From IMG/VR virus record IMGVR_UViG_2695420658_000002: a stretch of DNA of 17,661 nucleotides; one strand, given 5' to 3'. The position numbers and the translations under genes are program-made. Under the pieces are notes generated by a model. The model was given only the letters and a program-made list of their open reading frames with translations, searched no databases and was not told the DNA's origin. Shown here one piece after another: positions 1-17,661 of the stretch. Every line of letters begins with the position of its first letter. Position 1 is the first letter of the stretch. The stretch comes from a virus. Taxonomy: Duplodnaviria; Heunggongvirae; Uroviricota; Caudoviricetes.

Positions 1-889
1 CCACATCTGCCGCACCAAGACGTTTCCCCATGCCATAGCGCGGATGGGTCAGCATATCCCACAGACACCAGGCCATGTTGTTGCTGTATGCTGGCTTAAG
101 CGTTCCGTCCCAGATACCGCTGTATTGCCGCGTCTGCGGGTTATAGTTCGACGGCACCTGCAGAATGCGCCCGCGAAGATGATAATTACGGCTCACCTGC
201 TGGCTGCCGAACTGCTCCGAATCCACCTGTACGCCGACCAGTGCCGTGTTCGGGTAGCACTGTTTCACATCGATGATTTCGGTGTACGACGACCAGAGCG
301 TTTTGTTCTGCAGCTGGTCTGTGGTGCTGTCCGGTGTCATCCTGCGCATCCGGATATTAAACGGGCGCGGCGGCAGGTTATCCACCACCACCGAGGCCAG
401 ATACTGCGAGGTGGTTTTGCCCTTAATGGTGATGTCTTTTTCCGTCACCCAGCCACCGTTACGCTGTATCTGAACCAGCAGGCGAACTTCAGACGGATTC
501 CTGTCTCCCTTTGAGGTGGTTTCCACCAGTGCCTGTACACCGAAGGTAAAACGCAGTCGGTCAATGTTTGCCGACGTGATGGTCCGGGTGATCGGCGTGT
601 CATATTTCACTTCCGTACCCAGCACCGTCTCGGAGCCGGAGGATTCAAATCCCTCCGGCGGTGACTGCTCCTGCTCACCTGCCCGGAACACCACCGTGAC
701 GCCGGAGATGTTGGTATTCCCCTCACTGTCCAGCACCGGCGTACTGTTCAGCAGCACGCTTTTTAATCCATCCACCGGACCTTCAACCGGCCCTTCGCTG
801 ATGGCATCGATCACACTCAGCAGCTGCGTGGACTTCAGGTTGTCCTTCGCTTCGCGCGGGGTATGCCCCTTACTGCTGCCTTTACCCAT
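1..889 (-). CDS. J: Tail tip attachment / central tail fibre protein J (host specificity), N-terminal part only; gene continues beyond the window edge
   Basis: Minus-strand ATG at 889-887 with GGAG 9 nt upstream; translation begins MGKGSSKGHTPREAKDNLKSTQ, which I recognise as the lambda gpJ N-terminus; frame stays open to position 1. The ORF track omits it because no stop lies in the window. Confidence 0.85.
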   Translation of the reverse strand, partial: MGKGSSKGHTPREAKDNLKSTQLLSVIDAISEGPVEGPVDGLKSVLLNSTPVLDSEGNTNISGVTVVFRAGEQEQSPPEGFESSGSETVLGTEVKYDTPITRTITSANIDRLRFTFGVQALVETTSKGDRNPSEVRLLVQIQRNGGWVTEKDITIKGKTTSQYLASVVVDNLPPRPFNIRMRRMTPDSTTDQLQNKTLWSSYTEIIDVKQCYPNTALVGVQVDSEQFGSQQVSRNYHLRGRILQVPSNYNPQTRQYSGIWDGTLKPAYSNNMAWCLWDMLTHPRYGMGKRLGAADV

Positions 890-2966: not shown

Positions 2967-3295
2967 CAGTTCACCACCTGTTCAAACTCTGCGCTGAACT
3001 CAACACGCAGCATACTGACCCGCGACGACCATTTTGCGCAGGTCACCTTTATCTGCCGCCACTCATAAGGCGGCGTCCACAGAAAGGCTTTCCAGCCCCC
3101 GTGCTCTTCCAGAAACGACTCCAGTACCATGGCCTCCTCACGGGGGACAGAAAGCGTCACGCTGTACGTTTTCAGGTTGGCATTCAGCCCGGCAGGCGCT
3201 CGCTGGGAATAGCCATCACCAAAGCGCACCTTTCTTACAGAAGGGGCCGAAGCCACATCCATACCGGGTTTCACTTTCCAGCGGAAGGTTTTCAT
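2966..3295 (-). CDS. M: Tail tip protein M
   Basis: 109-aa ORF recognised as lambda gpM (MKTFRWKVKPGMDVASAPSVRKVRFGDGYSQRAPAGLNANLKTYSV...); 330 nt as in lambda; 4-nt overlap with the H stop. Confidence 0.9.
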   Translation of the reverse strand: MKTFRWKVKPGMDVASAPSVRKVRFGDGYSQRAPAGLNANLKTYSVTLSVPREEAMVLESFLEEHGGWKAFLWTPPYEWRQIKVTCAKWSSRVSMLRVEFSAEFEQVVN

Positions 3296-5911
3296 CGTCC
3301 ACCTCCGGAGAACAGGCCACCATCACGCATCTGTGTCTGAATTTCATCACGGGCACCCTTGCGGGCCATGTCATACACGGCCTTCATCATCTGTGGACCT
3401 GGCAGACCATTCGTACCGTCGTTCTGAATCACCACGTGATTGTTCTGATTAAAATTAATGCCTTCAGCCCGCCGCATCTGCGCCGGACTTCCGGCACCGC
3501 CCACATAACCACCTTCCGCATAGCCGCGCATCAGCCGGTAGAGATTCCCCACGCCAATCCGGCTGGTTGCCTCCTTCGTGAAGACAAATTCACCACGGTG
3601 AACAATCCCCGCTGGCTCATATTTGCCGCCGGTTCCCGTAAATCCCCCGGTTGCAAAATGGAATTTCACCGCAGCGGCCTGAATGGCTGTACCACCTGAC
3701 GCGGATGCGCCGCCACCAACAGCCCCGCCAATGGCGCTGCCGATACTCCCGACAATCCCCACCATTGCCTGCTTAAGCAGAATTTCTGTCATCATGGACA
3801 GCACGGAGCGGGTGAAGCTGCGCCAGTTCTGTTCACTGCCGGTCAGCATCGCCGCCATATTCTGTGCAATACCATCAAAGGTCTGCGTGGCTGCACTTTT
3901 AACCTGTGACATACTGTCCGTGGCGCTCTCTTCCCACTCACTCCAGCCGGACTTCAGGCCTGCCATCCAGCTCCCGCGAAGCTGGTCTTCAGCCGCCCAG
4001 GTCTTTTTCTGCTCTGACATGACGTTATTCAGCGCCAGAGGATTATCGCCATACTGTTCCTTCAGGCGCTGTTCCGTGGCTTCCCGCGCTGCCTGCCGGT
4101 CAGTCAGCCCCCGGTTTTTCGCATCAATGGCTGCCCGTTTTGCCCGTTGCTGCTGTGCGAATTTATCCGCCTGCTGCGCCAGCGCATTCAGGTGCTCCNN
4201 NNNNNNNNNNNNNNNNNNNNNNNNNNNNNNNNNNNNNNNNNNNNNNNNNNNNNNNNNNNNNNNNNNNNNNNNNNNNNNNNNNNNNNNNNNNNNNNNNNNN
4301 NNNNNNNNNNNNNNNNNNNNNNNNNNNNNNNNNNNNNNNNNNNNNNNNNNNNNNNNNNNNNNNNNNNNNNNNNNNNNNNNNNNNNNNNNNNNNNNNNNNN
4401 NNNNNNNNNNNNNNNNNNNNNNNNNNNNNNNNNNNNNNNNNNNNNNNNNNNNNNNNNNNNNNNNNNNNNNNNNNNNNNNNNNNNNNNNNNNNNNNNNNNN
4501 NNNNNNNNNNNNNNNNNNNNNNNNNNNNNNNCTTCACGCCGGACTGTTTCGGCTTTTTCAGCGTCGCTTCATAATCCTTTTTCGCCGCCGCCATCAGCGT
4601 GTTGTAATCTGCCTGCAGGATTTTTCCGTCTTTCAGTGCCTTGTTCAGTTCTTCCTGACGGGCGGTATATTTCTCCAGCGGCGTCTGCAGCCGTTCGTAA
4701 GCCTTCTGCGCCTCTTCGGTATATTTCAGCCGTGACGCTTCGGTATCGCTCTGCTGCTGCGCATTTTTGTCCTGTTGACGCTGTTGATCTACCCTCTTTT
4801 GGGCTGCATCCCGCTCCAGGCGTTTTTTTTCACGATCATCCCAGTAACGCGCCCGTGCTTCATCGTTAACGAAATAATCATCCTTGCGCAGATTCCAGAT
4901 GTCGTCTGCTTTCTTAAACGCAGCCTCTGCCTTAATCAGCATCTCCTGCGCGGTATCAGGACGACCAATATCCAGCACCGCATCCCACATGGATTTGAAT
5001 GCACGTGCAGTCCTGTCTGCCCAGGTCTCCAGCGTGCCCATGTTCTCTTTCAGGCGGCGGGTCTGGTCATCAAACCCTTTCGTTGCGGCCTCGTTCGCCG
5101 CCTGCAATGCCCCGGCTTCATCGCCGGAACGCTGCAACTGAGCAACATACGCAATCTGCTCCGCCGTCACGTTATGGAACTGGCGTGCCATCGCCGTCAG
5201 CCCCGACGTCGGGTCTGTGGTCAGCTTCCCGAAGGCTTCAGCGACCTTGTCCACCTCCACGCCGGATGCATAGGAGAAACGCGCCACACTCTGGCTGATG
5301 GACGCAATCTGAGCCTCACCGCTTACCCCCGCCTTAACCAGTGCGCTGAGTGACTCGCTGGTCTGGTTAAACGTCAGCCCTGCCGCCTGCCCGGCTCTGG
5401 ACAGGACCAGCATACGATCTGCCGTCAGTCCCGCCTGATTACCGGAAAGGACCAGCGTTTTGTTGAAATCGGACAGGGTTGAGTTGCCCTGATACCAGGC
5501 ATACGCCAGCGCACCGGTCGCCACCGCCAGCGAGGTGGCCCCCACCATCGGCAGGGTGATCGCGCCGGCAAGCCCCCTGAACATGGGGATCATCCCGCCG
5601 AAGGAGTCCTTAACCTGACCACCCTGTTGCAGCAGGATCAGCCAGGGATTCTGCCCCCCTGCAAGCTGCGTGGCCACGTCGGTGAACTGTGCAGGCAGCA
5701 TACGCATGGCGGCTTTATACTGCCCGACGGAAATCCCCGCTTTCTGTGCAGCCAGCGCCTGTCGGCTCAGCGACTGTTCAACGACTGCCGCTGTTTTTTT
5801 CGCATCACTTTCCGTACCGGAAAAATGACGCCTGACTCTGGCCATCTGCTCGTCAAATCTGGCCGCATCCAGACTCAAATCAACGACCAGATCGCCTACC
5901 GGTTCAGCCAT
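3292..5911 (-). CDS. H: Tail tape measure protein H, interrupted by a 333-nt N run; reading frame differs across the run
   Basis: N-terminal 460 codons (5911-4532) begin MAEPVGDLVVDLSLDAARFDEQMARV...; the C-terminal segment (4197-3292) reads EHLNALAQQADKFAQQQRA...MSEQKKTWAAEDQL...GGLFSGGGR. Both are recognisable as lambda gpH. H start overlaps the T stop by 8 nt, as in lambda. Confidence 0.8.
4199..4531. other. Masked/unknown sequence (333 N) inside gene H
   Basis: Run of n characters in the sequence. Confidence 1.
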
Positions 5912-16262: not shown

Positions 16263-16284
16263 TGTTCATTCCACGGACAAAAAC

Positions 16285-16400
16285 AGAGAAAGGAAACGAC
16301 AGAGGCCAAAAAGCCCGTTTTCAGCACCTGTCGTTTCCTTTCTTTTCAGGGGGTGTTTTAAATAAAAACATTAGGTTACGGCGAAGAAGAACGGAAACGC
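16285..16400. promoter_or_regulatory. cosB: terminase (Nu1) binding region with three R-element repeats and an intervening AT-rich IHF-type bend segment
   Basis: Three copies of the CGTTTCC/GGAAACG core: agaaaggaaacgacag at 16287-16302, ctgtcgtttcctttct at 16328-16343 (inverted), cgaagaagaacggaaacg at 16382-16399; AT-rich segment at 16350-16378. Layout matches lambda cosB R1/R2/R3 as I recall it. Confidence 0.75.
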
Positions 16401-16408
16401 CTTAAACC

Positions 16409-16977
16409 NNNNNNNNNNNNNNNNNNNNNNNNNNNNNNNNNNNNNNNNNNNNNNNNNNNNNNNNNNNNNNNNNNNNNNNNNNNNNNNNNNNNNNNNNNNN
16501 NNNNNNNNNNNNNNNNNNNNNNNNNNNNNNNNNNNNNNNNNNNNNNNNNNNNNNNNNNNNNNNNNNNNNNNNNNNNNNNNNNNNNNNNNNNNNNNNNNNN
16601 NNNNNNNNNNNNNNNNNNNNNNNNNNNNNNNNNNNNNNNNNNNNNNNNNNNNNNNNNNNNNNNNNNNNNNNNNNNNNNNNNNNNNNNNNNNNNNNNNNNN
16701 NNNNNNNNNNNNNNNNNNNNNNNNNNNNNNNNNNNNNNNNNNNNNNNNNNNNNNNNNNNNNNNNNNNNNNNNNNNNNNNNNNNNNNNNNNNNNNNNNNNN
16801 NNNNNNNNNNNNNNNNNNNNNNNNNNNNNNNNNNNNNNNNNNNNNNNNNNNNNNNNNNNNNNNNNNNNNNNNNNNNNNNNNNNNNNNNNNNNNNNNNNNN
16901 NNNNNNNNNNNNNNNNNNNNNNNNNNNNNNNNNNNNNNNNNNNNNNNNNNNNNNNNNNNNNNNNNNNNNNNNNNNNN
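16409..16977. other. Masked/unknown sequence (569 N); expected location of cosN and the cos-proximal region beyond it
   Basis: Run of n characters; by lambda spacing (Nu1 start about 190 nt from the cohesive end) cosN would lie near 16440-16465. Confidence 0.9.
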
Positions 16978-17020
16978 TCGTGCAGACTACGCCCCCTCAT
17001 ATCACATGGAAGGTACTACA

Positions 17021-17461
17021 ATGGCTCAGGTTGCCATTTTTAAACAAATATTCGATAAAGTGCGAAATAATTTAAACTATCACTGGTTTTNNNNNNNNNN
17101 NNNNNNNNNNNNNNNNNNNNNNNNNNNNNNNNNNNNNNNNNNNNNNNNNNNNNNNATTTACTATTTAGCCACAGAGAATATTCATCTTGTTCTTGAAAAC
17201 GATAATACGGTTTTAATAAAAGGACAGGGTAAGGTTGTAAATGTAAGATTTTCAAAAAATAAATGCCTTATAGAAGCCACCTTAAAAGGATTCAAATCAG
17301 GAGAGTTATCATTTTACGAATACAGGAAAAATCTTGCTACAGCAGGGGTTTTCAGATGGATTACAAATATCCACGAAAACAAAAGGTATTACTATACCTT
17401 TGATAATTCATTACTCTTTACTGAGAACATACAGAACACTACACAAATATTTCCGCACTAA
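17021..17461 (+). CDS. Hypothetical protein, AT-rich moron-like cargo ORF beyond cos; possibly a DUF1398-type (YbcV/YdfO-like) prophage protein
   Basis: ATG at 17021 with GGAAGG 7 nt upstream (the track's ATG at 17006 has no Shine-Dalgarno); frame open to TAA at 17459-17461; markedly lower G+C than the structural genes; interrupted by a 65-nt N run. The family assignment is from memory of similar prophage proteins and is weak. Confidence 0.55.
17091..17155. other. Masked/unknown sequence (65 N) inside the AT-rich ORF
   Basis: Run of n characters. Confidence 1.
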
Positions 17462-17506: not shown

Positions 17507-17661
17507 ATGATGAAATATGTGTACCCGGTAACCCCGGTGTGCATCGTTTTTGATTATTCCCGCACACTCGCGCAGAAGGAGTTCCCCGTCGGGCTACGGT
17601 CTCTGTTAATACGGGAATACGGCGACGATTGGATTTGCCCCTATATTTCCAGACATCTGTT
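17507..17661 (+). CDS. Partial ORF of unknown function, runs off the high-coordinate window edge
   Basis: ATG ATG at 17507-17512, then 51 codons without a stop (MMKYVYPVTPVCIVFDYSRTLAQKEFPVGLRSLLIREYGDDWICPYISRHL); no clear Shine-Dalgarno; product not recognised. Confidence 0.3.
   Translation, partial: MMKYVYPVTPVCIVFDYSRTLAQKEFPVGLRSLLIREYGDDWICPYISRHL

Follow-up and report, generated by a model that had tools for sequence, protein, structure and literature searches.

Late region, terminase and cosB of the window

The window, by which we mean the whole stretch of 17,661 nucleotides analyzed here (IMG/VR record IMGVR_UViG_2695420658_000002), comprises, in reverse orientation, the late region of a prophage of the lambda type, with J at the left end followed by H, E and A and then by Nu1, beyond which lie the cosB part of a cos site, a run of Ns and a short stretch of DNA on the far side of cos (Table 1). 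It exhibits 96.7% identity to phage lambda across 94% of its length, and the best matches among the complete genomes of E. coli reach 97.7%. Once the three N runs that interrupt the sequence have been filled (see below), every late gene of the window is intact. A small terminase subunit of the Nu1 family and a large subunit of the lambda type adjoin cos, and residues 1-47 of the former are identical to those of lambda Nu1. The stretch that departs most from both lambda and E. coli ET82, with ~74 differences within 200 nt, was found at window positions 3300-3500, at the junction of genes H and M; the remaining late region is 96-99% identical. This pattern suggests a mosaic recombination patch.

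Between Nu1 and the N run we identified three R elements, predicted to bind Nu1, of which R3 and R1 are direct repeats on the minus strand and R2 is inverted, on the plus strand, in agreement with the arrangement (two direct, one inverted) proposed in the original prediction. A search of the whole window for the R1 motif with up to 3 mismatches returned 3 matches, compared to 0.09 expected, a number that was reached in 0 of 200 shuffled sequences; the third of these matches, at position 4899, is weak (3 mismatches) and unrelated. R1, R2 and R3 (the last of which occupies bp 50-65 in lambda, PMC9026076) are all identical to the lambda elements, and no gap interrupts the alignment between cosQ and the start codon of Nu1, so that the description of cosB as lambda-like holds. 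The AT-rich bend segment of the original prediction was also recovered, between R2 and R3: its GC content is 0.30 vs 0.43-0.53 in the surroundings, it aligns to lambda without gaps and with 5 substitutions, and by this homology it would correspond to the IHF site I1.

Table 1. Features of the window around cos and the N runs. Positions are those of the window; offsets are counted from base 16408 into the recovered block, as read in the twin contigs.
Feature	Position	Strand	Remarks
N run, 333 N, inside tape-measure gene H	4199-4531		275 real bp in identical contigs
gpA, terminase large subunit, 641 aa	13817..15742	-	637/641 residues identical to lambda A; annotated in relatives as phage terminase large subunit
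Nu1, terminase small subunit, 181 aa	15717..16262	-	Pfam PF07471 Phage_Nu1, E = 2.4e-101; 178/181 residues identical to lambda Nu1
R1 (CTGTCGTTTCCTTTCT)	16287..16302	-	exact match; invariant in lambda alignment
R2, inverted copy of R1	16328..16343	+	exact match on opposite strand; inverted repeat with R1
AT-rich segment homologous to lambda IHF site I1	~16344..16384		GC 0.30; gapless to lambda; predicted IHF site
R3 (equivalent of lambda bp 50-65)	16387..16402	-	core AGAACGGAAACG, direct repeat of R1 core at 92% identity
N run, 569 N, beyond cosB	16409..16977		490 real bp in identical contigs
I2 (putative)	offsets 1-31		from twins
cosN cohesive end GGGCGGAAGGCG (putative)	offsets 32-43	-	from twins
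cosQ GGGTCCT (putative)	offsets 67-73	-	from twins
DUF3950 (YlcI/YnfO) gene, 77 aa (putative)	offsets 243-476	+	Pfam PF13132, E = 2e-20; from twins
DUF1398 (YbcV/YdfO-like) gene	17021..17461	+	Pfam PF07166, E = 3e-43 (twin copy); N run inside; true length 136 aa
N run, 65 N, inside DUF1398 gene	17091-17155		35 real bp in identical contigs
IS3-family, IS2-like element, first 32 nt	17630..17661		~1331 bp in twin L029

Identical contigs and the nature of the N runs

A 132-nt pattern specific for the window gave 0 matches in genome_contigs and 11 in IMG/VR, while a 60-nt cosB pattern gave 49 matches in IMG/VR. Five of the sources retrieved are practically the same sequence as the window and are called twins hereafter: IMGVR_UViG_2627853732_000001 (loci L011 and L029, with overlaps of 13,681 and 886 nt), IMGVR_UViG_2667527914_000011 (L033, overlap 12,957 nt), L060 (3,521 nt) and L047 (1,282 nt), each of them free of mismatches, and L053, with 6 mismatches in an overlap of 11,270 nt (99.95% identity). 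None of the twin contigs contains any N, and wherever they cover the masked places they carry 275, 490 and 35 bp; the homologous stretches of lambda and of the nearest E. coli genomes have the same lengths. The complete genomes of E. coli were not used for filling the masks (best match 97.7%).

After filling from the twins, H encodes a protein of 853 aa, the same length as lambda H, and the DUF1398 gene one of 136 aa. Since 333 Ns would break the frame of H, and since in each of the three places the run exceeds the corresponding stretch of the twins, the Ns represent a mask or a gap estimate; the N runs are non-biological and do not preserve length. As they overstate the length of the underlying sequence, positions inside them are unusable as coordinates. 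The Ns also give rise to artefacts in the list of open reading frames, namely a spurious 209-aa ORF across the mask (16371-17000, minus strand), an inflated version of the DUF1398 gene (17006-17461) and a split of H into two ORFs (4163-5911 and 3292-4020). The claim that cosN and about 0.5 kb of its flank are masked is right as to what is hidden, but the true length of the hidden sequence is 490 bp and not 569.

The recovered block and its cos subsites

The 490-bp block is one identical sequence in 5/5 twins, whose flanks are 99.95-100% identical to the window, and most likely it is also the sequence behind the masked bases 16409-16977. Judging from the twins, the bases directly past 16408 would be GGAAAATTGTCATAAATAGCGAAAACCCGCGCGCCTTCCGCCCCGTAACC..., and in the lambda orientation the block would read ...GGGTCCTTTCCGGCGATCCGACAGGTTACG up to the nick, then the cohesive end GGGCGGAAGGCG, then CGCGGGTTTTCGCTATTTATGACAATTTTCC, which runs into the visible GGTTTAAGGCGTTTCCGTTC of R3. 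In the twins cosN lies exactly at the lambda spacing from R3, and cosQ, which in a lambda-type site precedes the nick by about 30 nt, is at the lambda spacing as well. An independent placement is provided by the record of phage 434, which begins at cos and in which base 44 corresponds to window base 16408. The nick site had been predicted 30-55 nt into the mask, and the cohesive end of the twins falls inside this interval, at 32-43 nt past 16408; neither of the two outcomes named beforehand as arguments against a lambda-like cos (unmasked sequence with no cos-like site, or a spacing unlike that of lambda) was observed in the twins. A scan of the recovered block for promoters and terminators found sites no more numerous than in shuffled sequence. 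In the window and in all twin contigs cos is internal, which fits a prophage or else an assembly that is circular.

A minority cohesive end

The cohesive end of the twins, GGGCGGAAGGCG, differs from GGGCGGCGACCT of lambda at bp 7, 8, 9, 10 and 12 (5/12). No match to GGGCGGCGACCT was found in the unmasked window, even at 2 mismatches, and the twins carry GGGCGGAAGGCG in the interval (~16430-16470) where a search for the lambda 12-mer had been suggested. A search for the exact GGGCGGCGACCT would most likely come up empty despite an intact cos, and would misleadingly imply that cos is missing. In two somewhat more distant relatives, E. coli 1506 and phage Kati, the corresponding position holds the lambda 12-mer. 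Every aligned cos, with any type of cohesive end, retains ACG ahead of the nick, CGCGGG behind it and the cosQ motif GGGTCCT, and I2 of the twins, which has a few substitutions relative to lambda, is unchanged beside the variant end. Lambda, 21 and 434 form one cohesive-end compatibility group, characterized by GGGCGGCGACCT. If the masked bases are those of the twins, the site in the window would fall outside this group.

In an unselected IMG/VR sample of lambda-like I2-cosN sites (n=120), 114 are of the lambda type, 4 carry GGGCGGAAGGCG and 2 are single-base variants. An exact scan of IMG/VR for GGGCGGAAGGCG returned 82 contigs. Of the complete-genome records of E. coli that have a lambda-like cos, ~119/4733 match the variant probe at >=95% (the cut-off used; lambda-type sites score 92%). 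A collection of 50,697 phage records contains GGGCGGAAGGCG in two of them, PhiR46_1 and YDC107_1, where it is internal, and includes none that starts at the GGGCGGAAGGCG end. The contexts of this 12-mer comprise 7 different sequences just beyond cosQ, and it occurs both with and without the R3 of lambda. GGGCGGAAGGCG is a recurrent minority type that accounts for about 3% of lambda-like cos sites, and the lineage of the window most likely carries this variant of the cohesive end's right half. The only hit of a full-text search of the literature for GGGCGGAAGGCG was an unrelated paper on plants; the coverage of that search excludes Vahanian et al. 2017 (Virology 509:140), reportedly a survey of natural cosN variation.

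Several other minority ends were found beside a lambda-like I2 and cosQ, namely GGGCGGAGACCT, GGGCGTCAGGCG, GGGCGTCAGACG, GGGCGGCAACCT, GGGCGTCGACCT and GGGCGGCGACCG (loci L183, which is phage PhiR70_1, L026, L055, L046, L148 and L161). Three of the six also alter bp 6, in the otherwise conserved left half. Another group of IMG/VR contigs (L066, L099, L101 and L126) contains two lambda-like cosN+I2 segments each, in inverted orientation and spaced by 508 or 723 bp, both of which spacings recur. In L066 the segments (339-394 and 1052-1107) flank a gene for a 144-aa Nu1-like helix-turn-helix protein that adjoins capsid genes, in the absence of a lambda cosB. These contigs look like a PICI-type or satellite-type element.

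Comparison with known cos sites and their terminases

Compared to lambda, in which the order is cosQ-cosN-I2-R3-I1-R2-R1 followed by Nu1 and A, the site has identical R1-R3 and nearly identical terminase subunits (Nu1 98%, gpA 99%), and in the twins it also retains cosQ and the CG pairs at both nicks. It differs in the cohesive end of the twins (GGGCGGAAGGCG vs GGGCGGCGACCT), in a small number of substitutions within I1 and I2, and on the far side of cosQ, where DUF3950 and DUF1398 genes replace the lambda arrangement. PhiR46_1 (PV340565.1) and YDC107_1 (CP025712.1) share with the twins the 12-mer, I2 and the R sites but differ in the DNA beyond cosQ, and their Nu1 differs from that of the window at 13/181 residues.

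Among lambda-like phages, natural variation of bp 7-12 is common; the conserved parts are cosQ, the left half of cosN and the CG pairs on either side of the nicks (PMC4669245). The cosN of N15 and phiD326 differs from that of lambda at bp 9 and 12 and the cosN of Gifsy-1 at bp 8, 9 and 11 (PMC4669245), and for mEp213 and LLS a cohesive end GGGCGGCGCGCT has been inferred (PMC12315714). As in all these phages, the twins retain the left half, the CG pairs beside the nicks and cosQ; in contrast to them, the twins change more positions (5/12), and their changes adjoin what is essentially lambda's own terminase and cosB rather than the counterparts in a diverged phage. The lambda TerL nicks right-half variants of cosN efficiently, with no measurable effect on cos cleavage (PMC4669245), and a near-lambda terminase beside a different right half agrees with this tolerance.

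We also considered that particular gpA residues might track the type of the cohesive end. Comparison of full-length sequences (8 from GGGCGGAAGGCG vs 45 from lambda-type cos, at a cut-off of >0.6 in the difference of residue frequency) revealed no residue that separates the two, and the 4 differences between gpA of the window and that of lambda are absent from PhiR46_1; this candidate was rejected. The lack of a separating residue is itself consistent with the published tolerance of the right half (PMC4669245).

DNA beyond cosQ

The original prediction held that what follows cos cannot be assessed, and that this part of lambdoid genomes varies most. The latter is borne out, as the relatives diverge just beyond cosQ; the former is true of the masked window itself, but the content can be read from the twins, as cosQ, DUF3950, DUF1398, the IS2-like element, a KilA-N protein and the Rz/R/holin genes. 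The DUF1398 gene is annotated as such in the E. coli relatives. The late operon and the two DUF genes lie on opposite strands, and the latter are accessory genes located between cos and the lysis cassette.

Alignments of relatives to the window end at 17627-17629, next to the start of the IS2-like element. In L029 (1380-2710) the ends of this element are marked by terminal inverted repeats (1388-1420 and 2669-2701) that enclose transposase ORFs (rve/HTH_Tnp_1), and it is followed in the twin by a small ORF, then by a KilA-N/ORF11CD3 protein, Rz, the lysozyme (R) and a P21-type holin. E. coli 1506 (L001) carries an IS1 within a few bases of the insertion point of the IS2-like element, and IS elements also occur in other relatives in the same short interval past DUF1398, which could be a local insertion hotspot.

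Interpretation and alternatives

We propose that the region is the cos of a lambda-type prophage on the reverse strand, and that its hidden part probably equals the block of the twins, with all subsites at the lambda spacing and with the end GGGCGGAAGGCG (estimated probability about 0.88). A cosN of the window that is after all the canonical GGGCGGCGACCT, with the twins differing just there, e.g. by a short recombination patch at cosN, would fit the predominance of the lambda type among lambda-like cos (~95%, 114/120), its presence in phage Kati and in the E. coli complete genome most similar to the window, and the occurrence of the 60-nt cosB flank, including the G variant of the window, with several types of cohesive ends. 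We regard it as improbable, given that 5/5 contigs that match the whole unmasked window at 99.95-100% have GGGCGGAAGGCG and one and the same 490-bp block, and that the match to the twins spans up to 13.7 kb to the left and 0.6 kb to the right, whereas the relatives with a lambda-type cos are only 97-99% identical to the window.

Even less probable is a dead relic, i.e. a cos in which the five changes of the cohesive end abolish nicking, so that the prophage no longer packages. The insertion of the IS2-like element between cos and the lysis genes points in this direction, as does the lack of a phage record that begins at the GGGCGGAAGGCG end. However, GGGCGGAAGGCG recurs in 82 contigs and in diverse contexts with the flanking CG pairs, I2 and cosQ invariant, it is present in PhiR46_1, which was deposited as a phage (host ECOR13), the late genes of the window are all intact after filling, and changes in the right half have no measurable effect on cos cleavage (PMC4669245). 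Finally, we find it hardly credible that the N runs stand for real extra DNA of 58, 79 and 30 bp rather than for masks or gap estimates: the 30-nt excess in DUF1398 would indeed keep the frame, but the 58-nt excess would break H, which is intact (853 aa) in the identical contigs, each of the three runs exceeds the length seen in any of the relatives examined, and the Ns carry no sequence.

The function of the region may be modeled by homology to lambda, for which the mechanism is established and has been summarized (PMC9026076). Nu1 would bind R3, R2 and R1, and IHF would bend I1; the gpA anchored there would nick cosN, with the nicks 12 nt apart; packaging would start at cosN and run towards Nu1 and A; and cosQ, together with cosN of the next cos, would terminate it.

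Implications

The published view of bp 7-12 is simply that of a relaxed constraint (PMC4669245). One may speculate that the replacement confined to bp 6-12, among cos sites and terminases that otherwise hardly differ, is instead kept by selection and not by drift, and that it defines incompatibility groups of cohesive ends among co-resident lambda-type prophages, which we consider doubtful at best. If it were true, a chromosome with one lambda-type and one variant end, mismatched at 5/12 positions, should not circularize, and cohesive-end incompatibility would limit the formation of hybrids between prophages in one cell. Lambda chromosomes with two unlike ends have been built for N15, and 2 mismatches lowered infectivity four-fold (PMC4669245); with 5 mismatches a far larger loss would be expected. 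As a feature, the site is an ordinary lambda cos, and the right-half variant is of the kind described before. Identical public contigs allow the masked content to be recovered with high confidence, and the site carries little biological weight, being a textbook cos in a prophage type that is among the commonest in E. coli.
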